A stretch of 64,000 nucleotides of DNA from Candidatus Micrarchaeia archaeon (GCA_049967695.1 JBMFSF010000001.1:925-64924); one strand, 5' to 3'; counted from the first letter of the stretch, positions 51,083 through 63,105 are shown. Made by a program: numbers and translations. The notes: a model not told the origin generated them from the letters alone.

Positions 51083-51216
51083 AATAACTATTCTTATTTA
51101 ATCTTTTAATATCTTTTGATGGCTTTGGCACAAATTTTTCAGCCAATTTCTATTTGCTACCATCAAAATATAGAAAGTGTATTATTTTTTTGCGCAACAT
51201 TAATTTTGGTGATTTG

Positions 51217-52455
51217 ATGGAAGTGCCTTCCAGCCCTGAGAATACTAATAAAATAATGAGCATAATAAACGAGCATCAGCAGATATCTTATAACGAGCTC
51301 GTTGAGTTTGCTTCTTCTAGCGGAATAGACGAAGCAACCCTTAAGAATATTTTGAAAGATCTTGAAAACATGAAAAATGTCGCATCAAGAAATATAGGCG
51401 GCATGCTCATATACTATCCTTTGGTGCAAGAGCCGCATCTTCAAAAAATACTAATAGTAGAGGACGATCCAAACATAAACAGGCTCATGGCCCTTTCGGT
51501 TAGCAAGGCTTTTGACATAAAGCAGATAACGCAAATTTATGATGGGGGCGAGGCACTTCCAAAAATTCGCGAAATAAAGCCTGATCTTATAATACTGGAT
51601 TTGATGCTTCCAAACAAAAGCGGGCTTGATATCTGCCAGACTGTTAAAAGCGATCCAGAGATAAAAAATGCAATAGTGATAATAGTAAGCGCAGTAGACC
51701 CTACAACAAACAGGCTTAAAAGCCTTCAGTATGGCGCAGACTATTACATTAAAAAGCCTTTTGATCCTATGGAGCTCAGAAGCCTTGTCACAATATTCCT
51801 GAAGAAAAAAGGCAAAAGGTTTGATCCCTTGATAGACCTCCCTGATGAGGAGCGTATATCTAAAGAGGTAGAAAAGGCAATCAACTCAGGAGAGCAATAT
51901 ACGATAGGAATGGTAAAAATAGAAAACCTTGGAAGCTATGCTCGCAGGTTTGGGGAGAAGTACGCATTTACTATATTGAGGCTTGTTTCGCAGCTTCTCC
52001 AGGACATAATCAATACCAGTGAGAAAAATACATTTATAGGATTCTTGAACAATGAGTCCTTTGTAATAGGGGGCCAGACAACCAGCGTGGAAGATGCCAT
52101 AACAAGACTCCGCAAGGAATTTAATGATGTACTTCCGTTTATACTTCAGGATGTAGGCTACAAGCAGCTGGACCTAGACATAGATAGCCTCTTTGAAACC
52201 AAAGAGATACCAAAGCTTGGCATTACTTATAGCCAGATAGAGAAAAATGAGATCAAGGAGCGCCGCGACGAGATACTTAAAACCAAGAAATCCTCTGAAA
52301 AGGACATAGGCTCATATACATACGATGAACTGCAAAAGCTTTTCGACAGCAATGATTTTGATATAAAAATAACTAGAGGGGCAAATGGAGTGGAGCTTCA
52401 TGTTGCGAAATCCCAAGAAGAAAAAAAATATGATTCTGACAATATGAACATATAA
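51217..52455 (+). CDS. response regulator: N-terminal wHTH-like domain, CheY-like receiver, degenerate GGDEF-like domain
   Basis: The receiver reads KILIVEDDPNINRLM...KPDLIILDLMLPNKSG...IIVSA...YIKKPF. The C-terminal half aligns to the GGDEF fold: DPLIDLPDEE..., IGMVKIENLGSYARRFGEKYAFTILRLV..., and FIGFLNNESFVIGG in place of RxGGDEFxxx. The ATG at 51217 is preferred to the TTG at 51154. Confidence 0.8.
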   Translation: MEVPSSPENTNKIMSIINEHQQISYNELVEFASSSGIDEATLKNILKDLENMKNVASRNIGGMLIYYPLVQEPHLQKILIVEDDPNINRLMALSVSKAFDIKQITQIYDGGEALPKIREIKPDLIILDLMLPNKSGLDICQTVKSDPEIKNAIVIIVSAVDPTTNRLKSLQYGADYYIKKPFDPMELRSLVTIFLKKKGKRFDPLIDLPDEERISKEVEKAINSGEQYTIGMVKIENLGSYARRFGEKYAFTILRLVSQLLQDIINTSEKNTFIGFLNNESFVIGGQTTSVEDAITRLRKEFNDVLPFILQDVGYKQLDLDIDSLFETKEIPKLGITYSQIEKNEIKERRDEILKTKKSSEKDIGSYTYDELQKLFDSNDFDIKITRGANGVELHVAKSQEEKKYDSDNMNI

Positions 52456-52469
52456 GACGGACGGAGCAA

Positions 52470-53015
52470 ATGCACCAAAAAAAAGAAATCAAATGCCAAT
52501 CATCAATAGATATGATTATGGCATATTCTTTCATAATCCTATTTATCAGTATCGTGATATACATATTTATGTCAGTGACTTCGAATAGCAGTTTTGTGTC
52601 TCCTTCGGGCTGCATCCTTTCTTCCCCTTTCTACTGCATAAAATACAAACTAAATACGAGTGGAAATCTCTCCATTCTGATTACGCAGACAAGCGGCTCT
52701 GCAATTAAAATAAACGGGATTGCCTGCTCATCGCAGATGAATTATACTGGCATCAATCCTGCATATGGTAATATTTATGTTTTGAACTCTTCTAGTGCAG
52801 GCTCAGCATATTATCCTAAAAATGTACTGCTTCCAAGCACGCTTTTGGATGGGGGCTATAAAAATTATTCATTATACTGTTATTCAAACTTCGGGCGTGC
52901 GTCTGGGTCCTTGGGCAGCATATTTAATGGTTATCTATGGATTAATTACTCTTATGGAGGGATTCCTGGAAATATTATACAGAATGTCGGATCTATAAGC
53001 GCCAAATACACATGA
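52470..53015 (+). CDS. class III signal peptide (archaeal type IV pilin-like) protein
   Basis: The N-terminus MHQKKEIKCQSSIDMIMAYSFIILFISIVIYIF has a short basic leader, the K-x-Q-S-x-I-D/E motif and a hydrophobic helix. The extracellular part has sequons. Paralog of the 61676-62164 product. Confidence 0.6.
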   Translation: MHQKKEIKCQSSIDMIMAYSFIILFISIVIYIFMSVTSNSSFVSPSGCILSSPFYCIKYKLNTSGNLSILITQTSGSAIKINGIACSSQMNYTGINPAYGNIYVLNSSSAGSAYYPKNVLLPSTLLDGGYKNYSLYCYSNFGRASGSLGSIFNGYLWINYSYGGIPGNIIQNVGSISAKYT

Positions 53016-53039
53016 TATTAATATGAAAACGGTGTAAAG

Positions 53040-53597
53040 ATGATATTATGCATTACTGGCATGCCAAACAGCGGCAAATCTACTGCAGCATCTATCCTTT
53101 CAAAGAAAGGTTTTAAAATAGTGGAGATGCGCAGCTTTATAGAAAAAGAGATGAAAAAGGAGCATATAAAAGTAGATCCTTTAAGCATAAGGGATTTCTC
53201 TACCAAAATAAGAGAGAGAATGGGGCAGGATGCTGTGGCCCAGCTCGCTATCAAACATATAAAAGCGATGAAAGGCAATATAATAATATCTGGTATAAGG
53301 AGCGTTTACGAGATAAATTATTTCAAATCCAAGATAAAAAACGATTTTTATGTTATTGCAATAACTGCGCCTGCCAGAATAAGATACAAGCGCGCGATAG
53401 CTGTAGAAAAGCCTGATGCCACAAAGACCTATAGCGAATTCATTAAGAGAGACAAGATAGAAAAAAGCTGGGGCCTTGCTGATGCCATAGATAATGCTGA
53501 TTTCATCATCAGCAATACCTCTACTCAAAAGGCGTTGGAATCCAGCCTAAGCAAGGTGCTTGACATAATAAATTCCACCCATGCAAATGCAAAGTAG
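53040..53597 (+). CDS. P-loop nucleotide kinase-like protein (UPF0200/dephospho-CoA-kinase-like fold)
   Basis: MILCITGMPNSGKST Walker A at the extreme N-terminus, 185 aa, and GIRSVYEINYF. The pattern resembles the archaeal UPF0200 family (from memory). Confidence 0.6.
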   Translation: MILCITGMPNSGKSTAASILSKKGFKIVEMRSFIEKEMKKEHIKVDPLSIRDFSTKIRERMGQDAVAQLAIKHIKAMKGNIIISGIRSVYEINYFKSKIKNDFYVIAITAPARIRYKRAIAVEKPDATKTYSEFIKRDKIEKSWGLADAIDNADFIISNTSTQKALESSLSKVLDIINSTHANAK

Positions 53598-53712
53598 AAT
53601 GCAAAAAATAAGCATAAAAGTAAGTCCTTTACTTAAAAGATTTGAGCAAACATGTCAATATTTAAAACAAATAGATAAAAATATTAAATATCAATTATTA
53701 AGCGGTAATAAA

Positions 53713-54525
53713 ATGAGAGCCATAACTGCGATATTTTTGTTTTTCGCATTTGCAATTGGTACTTCTACTGCTGCTTATGTTAATCTTGTGAATCCGTTAA
53801 ATGCCACTCTTTATACAAACCAGACTATATATATTGGTGAGGTTGCACCAGGCCAGTCGTTTTCTGTTGGTATCTTATCTAATACTACAAATTCCACAGG
53901 TTCGATGATCTTGTACGGGTGGAACAAGCTTGTAGCATTGGATTTGCCACCGAACTGGACTGCTTCTAGCACATCTTTTAATACGAGATATTTGCAAGTC
54001 CTTATAAAACCTTCTTCAAATTCAGAAATTGGAAAATACAGGCTTAAATTCGAGGCCATAAATGTAGGCAACTATACTCATTTGGGTGTTCTGCCTTTTT
54101 ATGCTACAATATCAATAAATCCTAGCGTCTTTTCAATTTCTGCTTATCCATCAAAGATAATCTCAACTCCTGGAGTGCCAGCAAATGTTACAATAGCAAT
54201 AAACAATAGCGGCGTATCAGACTGCCCTTTTATAATATCTTCTGCAGGGCTAATAAATTTTAACAATACAGAATCCATAATAGCTGTGCACCACCGCACG
54301 GTTCACGCTAACTACCCTGTAAGAGAGGGACAGGCAGGCTCATACAATTTCAGGCTTATGATAAATTCCACCCAAAGCTCTCTTGTAAATAAGACATTGA
54401 ATATAACTTTTATAGTCAAGCCTACAATGGGCTCGGAGTTTGCGTCTACAGGCCAGGGTATAGCTATTTTTCCAATTACCTATGCCCCAATATATGCAAT
54501 AGAGTACCTTTTGAGCAAGATATAA
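53713..54525 (+). CDS. secreted/anchored protein with repeated beta-sandwich-like (CARDB/adhesin-like) segments
   Basis: Sec-type signal peptide MRAITAIFLFFAFAIGTSTAAYV, many sequons, and a hydrophobic C-terminus (GIAIFPITYAPIYAIEYLL). The ATG at 53713 is preferred because the longer ORF-track start overlaps the kinase gene. Confidence 0.5.
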   Translation: MRAITAIFLFFAFAIGTSTAAYVNLVNPLNATLYTNQTIYIGEVAPGQSFSVGILSNTTNSTGSMILYGWNKLVALDLPPNWTASSTSFNTRYLQVLIKPSSNSEIGKYRLKFEAINVGNYTHLGVLPFYATISINPSVFSISAYPSKIISTPGVPANVTIAINNSGVSDCPFIISSAGLINFNNTESIIAVHHRTVHANYPVREGQAGSYNFRLMINSTQSSLVNKTLNITFIVKPTMGSEFASTGQGIAIFPITYAPIYAIEYLLSKI

Positions 54526-54670
54526 AAAGTGCAGATGCACTCTCAATGCATAAGCATAACACTATATAAATTTTTAGAATAAATGTATGAGCAATATTTT
54601 GTTGGGTTGAATTATTTTAGCTGTTGCAATTGCCTGATTTATAGAATATGAGTAATAGCAATAATGCCAA

Positions 54671-54742
54671 GCCCGAATAGCTCAGTGGTAGAGCGACTGG
54701 CTGTTAACCAGTAGGTCGCAGGTTCAATCCCTGCTTCGGGCG
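54671..54742 (+). tRNA. tRNA-Asn(GTT)
   Basis: GCCCGAA TA GCTC AGTGGTA GAGC G ACTGG CTGTTAA CCAGT AGGTC GCAGG TTCAATC CCTGC TTCGGGC G. Perfect cloverleaf, 72 nt, no insertion, followed by a T-run. Confidence 0.95.
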
Positions 54743-54750
54743 CTTTTTTA

Positions 54751-56994
54751 TTATTGTGGTGCAGTAGCTTCATCATTCTGTTTTTTTCTCTGCTTGGTGT
54801 CGGATCCATTTATTGGAAGTATGAAAAAGAATTTGCTTCCTTTTCCAAGCTCTGATTCTACTCCTATCTTGCCTTTATGAAGCAGAATTATCTTTTTAGC
54901 TATCGAAAGTCCGAGCCCAGTGCCAGATTTTGGAGGCGAGGTAAGGTCTTTTCTTGTGGTAGCTTGGTAGAACTCCCTAAACAGCTTCTTCTTGTCCTCT
55001 GGGCTTATTCCAACGCCTGTATCTATTACATCGCATTCTATGTACTTTTTCGTTTTCCTGAATGTATGTACAGTTATCCCTCCCTTATCTGTGAATTTGA
55101 TTGCGTTGCTTATCAAGTTTACAAGAACTTGTATTATCCTGTTCTGGTCTGCCATAATCTTAGGGACATTGTAATCTACTGTCCATTTGAAGAAAAGCCC
55201 TTTTGCTATAGCGTTTCCTTTTATTGCCTTAATGCTTGAAGTATCCTCAAGCTCCCTGAAGTCTATTTCGTTTATTTCAAGCTTTATCTTGTTAGCATCA
55301 AGTTTGGAAGCGTCTAGTACCTGCTGTATTATAAGCATCAGCCTGTTTGACTCGTCTATTATTGTTTTGATATATCCTTTTTGTTCATCGTTTAGCTCTC
55401 CAAACTCGCCGTTAATCAGAAATTTTGCATAACCTATTATGCTAGTGAGCGGGGATTTTAATTCGTGGGATATATTGTATATGAACTGCGACTTTAGATC
55501 GCTTATGCTTCTCAATCTGTTGCTTATGTTTGTCTGCCTTTTAAGCTCCAGTTCCATATCGTTAAGCCTGCGCTTTGTCTCCAATTCCTTTATCAAAAAC
55601 ATGTAATATGTTTGCGAGTTTACTTTTTCTATCTCTCTTATCGAGTAGATTGCAGAAAGCTTTGATTGGTCCTTTTTTATAAGGACTACGTAGCTGTTGT
55701 CTATCTTGTTGCCATTTTTAATATAGCCGAAATCCCTGTCCAATATATTAATATCTTCATAAATAGTCTTTATCTCTTTTCCAATAAGCTCGTCCTTAGG
55801 ATAGCCAAGTATATTTTCAACGGACATATTGCAGTATTTGATAAATCCAAGCTCGTCTACTATAAATATCGGATCAGAAGAGACATTTGCAAGGTCATAA
55901 AAATTGTTTACCAGCTTGCTCGTATTTACTGCCATGTCATTATTCTTCAATAACAGCAATATCTTCCCATAGCCTCTGCTCGCATATATATGCAGGTATC
56001 TTTTCTTGCCATTGGCGTTAATATAATACTCTCCTATGTCTTTTGTCCCATTTTCATAATCCAGGCTCTGGCTGAATTTCTGTCCTATACTTTCTTCCAT
56101 TAAATTTTCCAGTTTTCCTTCAGCAAGAAATTCGCTAGGTTGCCCAAGCACTTTGTCTACATTCGCGCTTGCGTATTCTATTTTGTGCGTTTTTTCATTT
56201 AGTATGAGGAGGCTTTCATCGCTTTCGGATTCAAACAGCGACAAAAGCCCATTTTTAAGTTTCGAATCTGTTGCTTTGTTAAAGAACAATATCTCAAGGT
56301 TCTCATTTATGTCATTGGCAGATATGTAGTATATGTTGTTTCCAATTGCTTTCTCCAAGCCGGACTTGAGAGCAGATTGTATCTCCTCTGCTTGCACATT
56401 TATCTCAGATATGCTTGCCCCTTCTTTAAGCACCTCAAACTCCCTTAATGTTGCTTCGTTTGTTTTCACAACTGTGCCGTTCTTGTTGGCAAGTATTGTA
56501 GGAATTCCGGAATCGAAAGCCGCAGAGAAATAGCTTGCCAATCTTGCACTCTTTTCGGTTTCTATCTTGTAGACTATAACATAGCCTGCGAAATACGAGG
56601 CTATCAAAGCCAGATTTACAATCTGGGTATTGAATTTGCTTTCGTATTTTGAAAGCATTTCGAATATTGCAACCACTCTTCCATTTGCTATAATAGGAAT
56701 TCCAACATAGCTCTTGTACCCTGAATTGAACGCTTCTATAAGCTCTGAAAATGTGGAGTAGCTGCTCAGCTGGTTATCTATATACGGCGTTTTTGTGTTT
56801 GTTATATATTCGTAAAGCTTGCTTTCTCCTTTTTCGTTTATGCTTACTATATCTGCTTTCTCAACCCCAAACACGTTGAGGGCAGTTTCCTTGAACTTCA
56901 ATATGAAATCGTCCTTGCTCATGCTGCTGTTTGCTAACGGGATTATATCATCAAACAGCTTGCCGATGAGAAGGTTGATTTCGGTCATGAGCAT
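54751..56994 (-). CDS. soluble sensor histidine kinase (GAF + multiple PAS-like domains + HisKA + HATPase_c)
   Basis: H-box ISHELKSPLTSIIGYAKFL, N-box LVNLISNAIKFT, G1 VIDTGVGI, G2 SGTGLGLSIAKKIILLHKG. A roughly 480-aa N-terminal sensory region has no TM segments. Confidence 0.9.
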   Translation of the reverse strand: MLMTEINLLIGKLFDDIIPLANSSMSKDDFILKFKETALNVFGVEKADIVSINEKGESKLYEYITNTKTPYIDNQLSSYSTFSELIEAFNSGYKSYVGIPIIANGRVVAIFEMLSKYESKFNTQIVNLALIASYFAGYVIVYKIETEKSARLASYFSAAFDSGIPTILANKNGTVVKTNEATLREFEVLKEGASISEINVQAEEIQSALKSGLEKAIGNNIYYISANDINENLEILFFNKATDSKLKNGLLSLFESESDESLLILNEKTHKIEYASANVDKVLGQPSEFLAEGKLENLMEESIGQKFSQSLDYENGTKDIGEYYINANGKKRYLHIYASRGYGKILLLLKNNDMAVNTSKLVNNFYDLANVSSDPIFIVDELGFIKYCNMSVENILGYPKDELIGKEIKTIYEDINILDRDFGYIKNGNKIDNSYVVLIKKDQSKLSAIYSIREIEKVNSQTYYMFLIKELETKRRLNDMELELKRQTNISNRLRSISDLKSQFIYNISHELKSPLTSIIGYAKFLINGEFGELNDEQKGYIKTIIDESNRLMLIIQQVLDASKLDANKIKLEINEIDFRELEDTSSIKAIKGNAIAKGLFFKWTVDYNVPKIMADQNRIIQVLVNLISNAIKFTDKGGITVHTFRKTKKYIECDVIDTGVGISPEDKKKLFREFYQATTRKDLTSPPKSGTGLGLSIAKKIILLHKGKIGVESELGKGSKFFFILPINGSDTKQRKKQNDEATAPQ

Positions 56995-61675: not shown

Positions 61676-62164
61676 TTATGGGAGGGATAGAGCGCCCGGC
61701 ACATTTACCTTTGCTACAAGGCTTCCACTTACTGTTTTGTGCATTTTATTTTGTGTATAATTTACGGCAAGGTATCCATTGAAAACTGAGCCAACACTTC
61801 CTTTATACCCTTTATTGCCAGCATAGCAGTTTACTTTTACTGCGGTCGATTGGCCAGGCAGCAAGGTAATATGTGGGGTTATAGCATTCATTGTAGGTGT
61901 TGCATTGATGCCGCAGCCTATCGCAGTTATATTCATAACAGTTTCAGTGTTCTGCTGTAGATTTACTATAAGCGTTCCACTTTCATTGAATCTTATATTG
62001 CTGCATGAGAAAGAGCTTGCAGGCAATGCGCAAACACTATGCATGTAAACAACACTATTAAAGCCCCCAAGCTCATAAATCGCAGCTAAGACAACCGCAA
62101 TTAACAATATGGCCCAGCTGTATGTTACCAAATATTCTATTGCGCTTTGCAATCTGCTTTGCAT
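61676..62164 (-). CDS. class III signal peptide (archaeal type IV pilin-like) protein
   Basis: The N-terminus MQSRLQSAIEYLVTYSWAILLIAVVLAAIY carries the QxSxEY-type prepilin motif and a hydrophobic helix. It shares the C-terminal motif GSVFNGYLAVNY with the 52470-53015 product (GSIFNGYLWINY). Confidence 0.65.
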   Translation of the reverse strand: MQSRLQSAIEYLVTYSWAILLIAVVLAAIYELGGFNSVVYMHSVCALPASSFSCSNIRFNESGTLIVNLQQNTETVMNITAIGCGINATPTMNAITPHITLLPGQSTAVKVNCYAGNKGYKGSVGSVFNGYLAVNYTQNKMHKTVSGSLVAKVNVPGALSLP

Positions 62165-62175
62165 GCAAACACTAT

Positions 62176-63105
62176 CTATGATATATTTCCACTATCTATG
62201 GAAGCTATTATGCCATCTATTATGCCGTTTACACCTATGCCTCCGGTAGATCTTACTGCTATCCTGTGGCTTAGGACAGGCCTTGCCAAGAATTTTATAT
62301 CATCTATTGTTGCTTCATTCCTTTGGTGTATAAGCGCCCTTGCTTTTGCGCACTGCATAAAGCTTATCTCTGCCCTTGGGCTTCCTCCCATTACTACGTG
62401 TATGTCTTCTCTTGAAGCATCTACAACCTTTGTGATATAATCAAGTACTTCGTCGCTTATTGCAATCTTTTTTGCATCTGCCTGCAATGCCAATATATCG
62501 TCTATTCCAAGAACTTTTTTTACTTCTATTGTTTCTTCTCTGTCTTTTATCCTTAACATCTCTTTTTCTTCTTCTTGTGAAGGATATGTCACATTTATTT
62601 TCATTAGGAACCTGTCTGCAAGCACTTTCGGTAGTGCCACTGTCCCCTCTATGTTAAGGGGGTTTTGCGTTGCAAAAGCAGTAAACGGCTTTGGCAGAGG
62701 GAAAGTTTGATCTCCTATCGTCACCTGTTTTTCTTCCAGGGCTTCAAGCAGTGCAGACATTACCTTTGGCTGCATCCTATTTAGCTCATCTATAAGAAAC
62801 AAGTTTGTAAATATTGCCCCTTTTTTGATTTTTAAGCGGCCGCTTTGATCCTGGTAGACATAGCCTGCGATATCTGCTATTGAGAGGTCCGGAGTGCCTT
62901 GTACCCTGCCAAATCCTGCGTCTATGATCTGTGCCAGTGTTTTTGTCATTGTTGTTTTTGCGACTCCAGGAACTCCTTCAAGCATAACATTTCCTTGCGC
63001 AATAACCGAAATAAACATTAGCTCTATCACATCTTCTTTTCCTGCAATATGCTTTTTCATTTCCGTCAATACTTGTTCATATAGCTGGTTTAATGGCATT
63101 TGCAT
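62176..63105 (-). CDS. MoxR-like AAA+ ATPase
   Basis: Walker A LEGVPGVAKTTM, Walker B FLIDELNRMQPKV and ATQNPLNIEGTVALPKVLADRF are typical of MoxR/RavA-class ATPases. 309 aa. Confidence 0.9.
   Translation of the reverse strand: MQMPLNQLYEQVLTEMKKHIAGKEDVIELMFISVIAQGNVMLEGVPGVAKTTMTKTLAQIIDAGFGRVQGTPDLSIADIAGYVYQDQSGRLKIKKGAIFTNLFLIDELNRMQPKVMSALLEALEEKQVTIGDQTFPLPKPFTAFATQNPLNIEGTVALPKVLADRFLMKINVTYPSQEEEKEMLRIKDREETIEVKKVLGIDDILALQADAKKIAISDEVLDYITKVVDASREDIHVVMGGSPRAEISFMQCAKARALIHQRNEATIDDIKFLARPVLSHRIAVRSTGGIGVNGIIDGIIASIDSGNIS

Follow-up and report, generated by a model that had tools for sequence, protein, structure and literature searches.

The window analysed here is a stretch of 64,000 nucleotides (nt) from Candidatus Micrarchaeia archaeon (GCA_049967695.1, JBMFSF010000001.1:925-64924), and the subject of this analysis is a two-component system encoded in it, together with the genes beside it. 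The genome behind the window is a Micrarchaeales (DPANN) assembly of 0.89 Mb in 65 contigs with a completeness of 94.8%, and the close homologues of the response regulator are labelled at source Candidatus Micrarchaeia, Micrarchaeaceae or Micrarchaeota. As a group, the Micrarchaeota depend on a host and have genomes of ~1 Mb. Six features, five protein genes and a tRNA-Asn gene, lie between 51.2 and 57.0 kb of the window. Domains were called with Pfam and NCBIfam, and the tRNA with ARAGORN; together with the inspection of open reading frames, these checks recovered every feature that an initial annotation of this DNA had listed. The features, and the promoter element ahead of the first gene, are given below with the basis of each assignment.

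51172..51195, + strand: promoter element of the regulator gene, resembling a transcription factor B recognition element and TATA box (BRE/TATA-like; conserved in 25 orthologous upstream regions).
51217..52455, + strand: response regulator, 412 amino acids (aa) (Pfam, alignment, AlphaFold2, Foldseek).
52470..53015, + strand: type IV pilin-like protein with a predicted class III signal peptide, 181 aa (orthologue alignments, paralogy).
53040..53597, + strand: UPF0200-family P-loop nucleotide kinase-like protein, 185 aa, cytoplasmic (PDB 3h0k/3lw7, Pfam).
53713..54525, + strand: Micrarchaeota core surface protein, immunoglobulin-like (Ig-like), 270 aa (AlphaFold2, orthologue alignment).
54671..54743, + strand: tRNA-Asn (GTT) (ARAGORN).
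54751..56994, - strand: cytoplasmic sensor histidine kinase, 747 aa, convergent to the genes above (Pfam, NCBIfam).

The histidine kinase carries the following domains.

56608-56835, - strand: GAF-like domain, aa 54-129 (weak; 17.7 bits against a cut-off of 28.6).
aa 262-316, - strand: second PAS-like domain (sub-threshold).
55627-55878, - strand: PAS domain (PAS_9), aa 373-456 (above threshold).
55294-55494, - strand: HisKA, aa 501-567 (68.8 bits), with H510 in the H-box SHELKSP.
54811-55149, - strand: HATPase_c, aa 616-728 (89.8 bits, above cut-off).

Its catalytic core is nearest to HK853-type kinases. A transmembrane segment is not evident, as no 19-residue window exceeded the Kyte-Doolittle threshold of 1.6. 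The response regulator can be divided into four parts.

51247-51444, + strand: winged helix-turn-helix (wHTH) of the BlaI/Penicillinase_R type, aa 11-76 (Pfam, 27.7 bits).
51448-51789, + strand: REC domain, aa 78-191 (Pfam, 77.6 bits), with the acidic pocket E82-D83-D84, the phospho-acceptor D128, S158 and K180.
51823-52236, + strand: predicted degenerate GGDEF palm domain, ~aa 203-340, with NNESF at aa 278-282.
aa 341-400, + strand: lineage-specific alpha/beta tail.

Relatives were surveyed in a phylum sample of 201 genomes, of which 55 belong to the same family (Micrarchaeaceae) and 33 to a sister family. Profile searches revealed one REC and one HisKA domain in the genome behind the window; two further HATPase_c matches on other contigs, in frames of 650 and 548 aa, both lack HisKA. 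A single REC above threshold was likewise found in each of 40 relatives from the same family or order, and exactly one HisKA in every Micrarchaeales genome of the sample (~90). The regulator family is present in 104 of the 201 genomes. Outside the order it occurs in 9 genomes from four families with 39-47% identity, and strong HisKA matches outside the order come from these same 9 genomes. Among these deeper relatives, the kinase gene adjoins the regulator gene in 7 of 8 loci examined, divergently in six, while in most genomes of both families the two genes lie within a few kb of each other. Across the order, 40 of 41 relatives match the regulator over its full length with 50-62% identity, and the REC catalytic residues E82, D83, D84, D128, S158 and K180 are invariant in an alignment of 36 sequences. 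Because the HisKA and the REC are each the only one per genome, because they co-occur, and because their genes adjoin each other in relatives outside the order, it is almost certain that kinase and regulator belong together as cognate partners, in agreement with the pairing proposed in the initial annotation. Judged from their residues, both the HisKA kinase and the receiver appear complete and functional. By analogy with these domain families, the soluble GAF/PAS kinase would sense an intracellular cue, autophosphorylate at H510 and pass the phosphoryl group to D128 of the regulator; dimerisation of REC upon phosphorylation, together with the degenerate GGDEF domain, would then place the N-terminal winged helices on DNA.

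The C-terminal ~200 aa of the regulator match no Pfam family above threshold; against the Pfam GGDEF profile (PF00990) they score 16.9 bits (E 0.0057), below the cut-off of 23.8. An AlphaFold2 model built from 36 sequences (pLDDT 82, pTM 0.81) was compared with the PDB by Foldseek, and the best matches were WspR (3i5a, 3bre), DgcR and PleD, with E-values from 5e-12 to 1e-9 and an alignment of ~300 columns spanning REC and GGDEF. A phmmer search of 1.8 billion representative proteins returned ~20 lineage-specific clusters followed by true REC-GGDEF and GGDEF-EAL proteins with E-values between 1e-6 and 1e-4. The GGDEF-like assignment made in the initial annotation thus stands on both fold and remote sequence similarity. 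The GG[DE]EF signature is absent: NNESF is found in its place, with FLNSExF as the family consensus, and the position of the RxxD I-site reads EKNT. Alignment by eye to the pattern of PleD suggests that the metal site is altered as well, with VKIE in place of IDID, and that the guanine-binding residues are lost too. The C-terminal half of the regulator is, as modelled, a GGDEF fold that is catalytically degenerate.

The initial annotation had drawn on the bacterial precedent in which GGDEF regulators govern pili through cyclic di-GMP (c-di-GMP). For a domain with neither the GG[DE]EF signature nor the RxxD I-site, the sequence does not support applying this c-di-GMP logic. The output is probably DNA binding rather than c-di-GMP synthesis.

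The view that no such system had been characterised needs to be qualified, since the architecture of the regulator was already catalogued by Galperin et al. 2018 (PMC5847659). For Ca. Micrarchaeum acidiphilum their census lists a regulator termed 'WspR-like (REC with inactivated GGDEF)' and raises the question of contamination; for Ca. Mancarchaeum acidiphilum Mia14 it counts one histidine kinase plus one response regulator with HTH. The conserved archaeal synteny of the locus with fibrillarin and GluRS shows that the Micrarchaeum regulator is native and not contamination. No functional study of this two-component system was found in the literature, and Krause et al. 2022 (PMC8975820) mention neither a two-component system nor pili.

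Elsewhere in the same genome, outside the window, a canonical GGDEF protein of 226-229 aa is encoded on contig C18 (574-1263, + strand; Pfam 116 bits). Its signature reads RIGGDEF, and REYD provides an RxxD motif at I-site spacing. The contig carries an archaeal ribosomal-protein cluster, and a second assembly, GCA_049966055.1, has this gene in the same place. From its motifs, this protein may be an active diguanylate cyclase in a micrarchaeon. A pattern scan of representative genomes for its close relatives gave only bacterial GGDEF proteins with ~30% identity. A 2026 study reported short GGDEF-only proteins in metagenome-assembled genomes of DPANN archaea and cyclase activity for some of them (PMC13725321).

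The gene directly downstream of the regulator encodes a protein with the N-terminus MHQKKEIKC/QSSIDMIMAYSFIILFISIVIYIF, where the slash marks the predicted cleavage site. It reads K-C/Q-S-S-I-D, that is, QSSID-MIMAYSFIILFISIVIYIF, and combines a basic N-terminus, a small residue at -1, Q at +1, an acidic residue at +5 and a helix, as expected for a class III signal; the hydrophobic peak of 19 aa reaches 2.59 on the Kyte-Doolittle scale. In the orthologues, the pattern [KR][AGS]/Q[AS]x[IL]DF leads into a hydrophobic helix, and four Cys residues are conserved. No Pfam family, Class_IIIsignal (PF04021) included, was matched at E-values up to 10. The protein is a single-copy order-level orthologue, found in essentially all Micrarchaeales sampled, and a diverged paralogue of the canonical QSAxEYL pilins, of which the genome has at least 7 copies. 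Two PilB/ArlI-type ATPases (T2SSE) and two prepilin peptidases (Peptidase_A24) were detected in the genome, all above cut-offs. The cluster itself holds none of these genes, and the nearest PilB-like gene is ~36 kb away. With this N-terminal pattern and with processing and assembly machinery in the genome, the class III signal-peptide gene reported 14 nt past the regulator is upheld. It is a pilin-like gene by its signal, and its cleavage and its incorporation into a filament are predictions.

Another canonical class III pilin, MQSRLQSAIEYLVTYSW, is encoded in the window at 61676-62164 (- strand); the gene for a MoxR-like AAA+ ATPase (62176-63105, - strand) ends 11 nt upstream of it. This pilin shares the C-terminal GS(L/V)GS(I/V)FNGYL with the regulator-linked pilin. 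In Ca. Mancarchaeum acidiphilum Mia14, two type IV pilus loci were described with no signalling link (Golyshina et al. 2017, PMC5498576).

Linkage was counted after the coordinates from the searches for the regulator, the Ig-like protein, the pilin orthologue and HisKA had been merged by hand. The usual order in the same family is GluRS(+), Zn-ribbon/TPR(-), fibrillarin(-), histidine kinase(+), X(-), regulator(+), pilin-like(+), [UPF0200(+)], Ig-like protein(+), Y(+), where X is a membrane-anchored, sequon-rich protein of 330-360 aa and Y a cytoplasmic protein of ~225 aa; neither has a Pfam domain. The linkage counts in the two families are as follows.

Regulator followed by the pilin orthologue on the same strand: 54/55 in the same family, 0/33 in the sister family.
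Regulator followed by the Ig-like protein: ~42/55 in the same family, 0/33 in the sister family.

Conservation of the neighbourhood, which the initial annotation had named as a check, is therefore split: the regulator-pilin pair is retained throughout almost all of the family and is absent from the sister family, and the Ig-like and UPF0200 genes, too, neighbour the regulator in this one family only. The pair is intact where the Ig-like protein has moved (genomes G002, G016, G074 and G191) and also where the kinase has moved, and in genus g15 it has been excised as a unit from between X and the Ig-like protein. In the genome behind the window, the block from the regulator through the pilin and UPF0200 genes to the Ig-like gene is inverted relative to the kinase and fibrillarin, and Y is found on contig C4 beside rps13. 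X was not detected in this genome by tblastn or a profile hidden Markov model, being lost, too diverged, or in an assembly gap; the proposed history of the locus would have this intervening protein lost. The tRNA-Asn gene sits at the junction of the inverted block and the kinase gene; none was placed between the Ig-like and kinase genes in the related loci examined, which were not scanned for tRNA.

The promoter element AGAAAGTGTATTATTTTTTTGCGC (51172..51195) lies 45 nt before the ATG of the regulator gene and is partly palindromic. The same element, with the consensus gaAAagnATAATATttTTTT, occurs at -36 to -61 in 25 orthologous regulator upstream regions from two families. A Shine-Dalgarno-like GGTGAT is found just ahead of the start codon. 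The gap between the regulator and pilin genes is 14 nt here and ranges from -20 to +30 nt among the called genes of six relatives. Since the conserved element lies before the regulator gene and the space ahead of the pilin gene is too short to hold a promoter, co-transcription is the simplest arrangement, and it is plausible from this layout that the two genes are co-transcribed, and hence co-expressed, in this family. A rearrangement in this family would have put an order-specific pilin gene behind the regulator and under its promoter. The AAAG-N-TAATATTA-N-CTTT-like element could double as an autoregulatory operator over the TATA box, and any autoregulation of this promoter would also set the level of the pilin.

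It is therefore our preferred reading, held with fair assurance, that the region comprises the sole two-component system of a Micrarchaeales archaeon, whose regulator forms a family-specific operon with a pilin-like gene, and that the remaining genes are passengers. The UPF0200 kinase, the Ig-like protein and the tRNA-Asn would be lineage-wide core genes that became neighbours through synteny and local inversions.

Several points weigh against this reading. Fibrillarin and GluRS keep their place beside the kinase about as well as the surface genes keep theirs beside the regulator, so that conserved order alone is weak evidence in this lineage. A gap of ~10 nt makes a breakpoint between the regulator and the pilin unlikely, so that a frozen accident could account for the conservation in 54 of 55 genomes. 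The genome was scanned with a 24-nt motif derived by expectation maximisation from 25 orthologous regulator promoters, and an operator common to the regulator promoter and other genes was not found. The scan gave 28 sites of at least 14 bits, fewer than the ~109 that we calculate as a crude upper bound for chance sites. No site could be tied to a pilin or surface gene, in an annotation of gene distances that is unreliable as longest-frame starts overran the sites. No further convincing copies of the motif were found, and no regulon can be proposed. Expression data were not found either, a run look-up returning no sequencing run that held the stretch, and we infer both the DNA binding of the wHTH and the phosphotransfer.

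Another reading takes the two-component system and the pilin-like gene to be functionally unconnected: the regulator and pilin genes would have been joined once in the ancestor of the family and kept together by the 10-nt gap, with the targets of the regulator elsewhere, in metabolism, stress response or the cell cycle. The restriction of the adjacency to one family and the equal synteny of the neighbouring housekeeping genes fit this explanation. So do the deeper relatives, in which the kinase and regulator genes, mostly arranged head-to-head, lack a neighbouring pilin orthologue, and two loci of the sister family, in which the pilin orthologue follows rps2 on the same strand after 10-74 nt and thus tolerates a housekeeping context. 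The reading is countered by the taxonomic distribution of the regulator and the pilin orthologue, both of which are near-universal in one and the same order of archaea, by their joint movement in genus g15, and by the fact that co-transcription in itself couples expression. We regard it as unlikely.

The remaining two genes were examined with respect to the proposal that they are parts of a surface module. The P-loop protein matches Pfam AAA_18/AAA_17, with the P-loop GMPNSGKS, and over its full length (aa 2-175) it matches the UPF0200 SSO1041/AdkA-like kinases (PDB 3h0k, 3lw7) with an E-value of 7e-28; no difference between these kinases and the protein in the window is apparent. Its gene is missing from the position between the regulator-pilin pair and the Ig-like gene in about half of the same family. 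With the UPF0200 identity, the 'kinase-like' gene becomes an ordinary conserved archaeal protein and not the signalling kinase of a module; by sequence, it is a housekeeping, pan-archaeal UPF0200 kinase and a passenger at this locus.

The start of the Ig-like protein is most likely at 53713 (MRAITAIFLFF...) and not at the upstream ATG at 53581, because the orthologues align from there. The AlphaFold2 model (pLDDT 84) shows an N-terminal signal helix, two beta-sandwiches (aa 23-135 and aa 140-235) and, near the C-terminus, a further helix (aa 259-269). The protein has 12 N-x-S/T sequons and a conserved C-terminal segment, G-x-G..FP..Y.P.Y..YL, which ends in the predicted helix; as modelled, this helix is probably a membrane anchor. 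Foldseek found only generic tandem beta-sandwiches, such as RbmA, intimin D00-D0 and transglutaminase. A word-based homology search with the protein alone matched only itself, and the family was therefore collected with an alignment of orthologues from fetched loci (A3); it has 350 members, all annotated as hypothetical, with no Pfam domain. The protein is single-copy in 197 of the 201 phylum genomes, and in ~93 of these the regulator is absent. In the sister family, the Ig-like gene is followed by Y in all 10 loci examined, with UPF0200 directly upstream in 4 of the 10. As a signature surface protein of the phylum, it merits attention as an envelope component, and it is a candidate for a core component of the envelope, for example an S-layer stalk or anchor. 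The S-layer protein itself was considered as an identity for the Ig-like protein or X and was rejected, as the published Micrarchaeum S-layer protein is ~101 kDa and has S-layer domains (bioRxiv 10.1101/2021.04.28.441871).

A broader explanation takes the whole 5.8-kb stretch as a dedicated, signal-controlled attachment module, whose output would be the pilin and an Ig-like 'adhesin' for contact with the host. The tight packing of the regulator, pilin, (UPF0200,) Ig-like and Y genes on one strand in most genomes of the family speaks for it, as does the position of the kinase, which remains within a few kb despite independent local rearrangements (in the genome behind the window, in G016, G163 and G185, and in G105). 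The kinase is also found 1 kb from the pilin orthologue in one sister-family genome, and in genome G099 the pilin orthologue clusters with pilin paralogues, the Ig-like protein and Y. Type IV pilus assembly ATPases and prepilin peptidases are encoded in the genome, and pili-like contacts between ARMAN archaea and their hosts have been reported (PMC5498576). Against this stand the ~93 genomes that have the Ig-like protein without the regulator, and the sister family, in which the pilin and Ig-like genes are away from the regulator (0/33; 15-212 kb between the regulator and Ig-like genes where both share a contig) and lie among ribosomal and RNA polymerase genes where examined. The pan-archaeal housekeeping nature of the P-loop gene, the lack in the cluster of an assembly ATPase or platform gene, with the nearest PilB-like gene ~36 kb off, and the failure of the motif scan to find a shared operator point the same way. 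This explanation is doubtful.

What is left of the 'sensory-controlled surface module' of the initial annotation is the link between the regulator and the pilin in one family. The P-loop and 'adhesin-like' genes are lineage-wide, lie next to the regulator in that family only, and fall away as its parts; the Ig-like protein occurs in 197 of the 201 genomes, the regulator in only 104. A dedicated sensory surface module beyond family-level synteny is not supported. Signal-controlled attachment is possible. The regulator-pilin operon is the only specific surface link of the two-component system, and it is confined to one family.

Single loci in the relatives show further arrangements. X is conserved and lies, divergently transcribed, between the kinase and regulator genes in both families (L027, L032, L035, L046, L051, L058 and L067-L072); its product is anchored in the membrane by the N-terminus, has a Thr/Ser-rich linker and many N-x-S/T sequons, and carries GxACG as a C-terminal motif. 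In G006 (L035, 4243-6746), an insertion of two large pilin-like genes (389 and 412 aa, MPKAQSAMEYLLTYGW...) separates the kinase gene from X. G099 (C13; L093, 10622-14606) is the only genome of the family where the regulator has left the pilin orthologue; there, two larger pilin paralogues lie ahead of the pilin orthologue, and the Ig-like protein and Y come after it, an arrangement which suggests that the pilin, the Ig-like protein and Y are themselves a functional unit.

In the sister-family genome G031, the kinase gene is ~1 kb from the pilin orthologue and convergent with it (L091, C3), an independent juxtaposition of kinase and pilin. The regulator gene of this genome is on C4 (L055), downstream of an ATPase gene and two genes for multi-span membrane proteins; a type IV pilus ATPase was considered and rejected here, as the ATPase is HerA/DUF87/TraG-like. 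In the 3-contig genome G183 (C3:419131-421505), the regulator gene has three stops, the pilin orthologue has one stop and is split, and the Ig-like gene is truncated at profile position 187 of 274, while the HisKA frame is intact; either a joint decay of the operon or indel errors of long reads would produce this pattern.

Returning to the preferred reading of a sole two-component system with a family-specific pilin operon, the retention of exactly one kinase/regulator pair implies that its target is probably central to the lifestyle of these archaea. The operon offers a concrete hypothesis that is testable in co-cultures of Ca. Micrarchaeum harzensis and Ca. Mancarchaeum. A more specific scenario, which we offer as speculation and consider rather improbable as a whole, is that in Micrarchaeaceae the sole two-component system autoregulates an operon with an order-specific minor pilin, and possibly the Ig-like protein, so that an intracellular cue, perhaps a metabolite of the host, switches a host-contact structure; the dead but strongly conserved GGDEF domain would bind a ligand or partner, possibly the GGDEF protein of contig C18 or its nucleotide product.

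Among known systems, the regulators catalogued from Micrarchaeota (PMC5847659) are the closest, being alike in lineage, protein family, domain order and the single two-component system per genome. That census listed proteins only; the present analysis adds that the regulator is single-copy, order-wide, placed in archaeal synteny and, in one family, joined in an operon with a pilin-like gene. The two-component system is thus catalogued but unstudied, and its operon fusion to a pilin-like gene is family-specific. The bacterial proteins WspR, PleD and DgcR (3i5a, 3bre, 1w25, 6zxb) share the order of REC and GGDEF palm fold, and oligomerisation driven by phosphorylation is likely shared as well, whereas the regulator described here differs in NNESF, the lack of RxxD, an extra N-terminal wHTH and a C-terminal tail of ~70 aa.

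LtrK/LtrR of Methanococcoides burtonii and the haloarchaeal HTH-REC regulators are alike in having an N-terminal (w)HTH followed by REC and a cytoplasmic or PAS-rich kinase (PMC5847659); they differ in lacking the GGDEF-like domain and the pilin linkage, and they belong to other lineages with many two-component systems per genome. The PilS-PilR-PilA system of Pseudomonas and Myxococcus, in which a kinase/regulator pair is also encoded beside a pilin gene and controls it as the major type IV pilin gene, is a plausible functional analogue. There, the kinase PilS is membrane-bound and detects pilin within the membrane, and the regulator PilR is a sigma-54 activator of the NtrC type, whereas here the kinase has no evident transmembrane segment and the regulator has no AAA+ or sigma-54 domain. 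In place of the PilS-PilR arrangement, a soluble kinase is paired with a regulator composed of wHTH, REC and a dead GGDEF domain, and the pilin gene lies downstream of the regulator in the same operon, in one family only.

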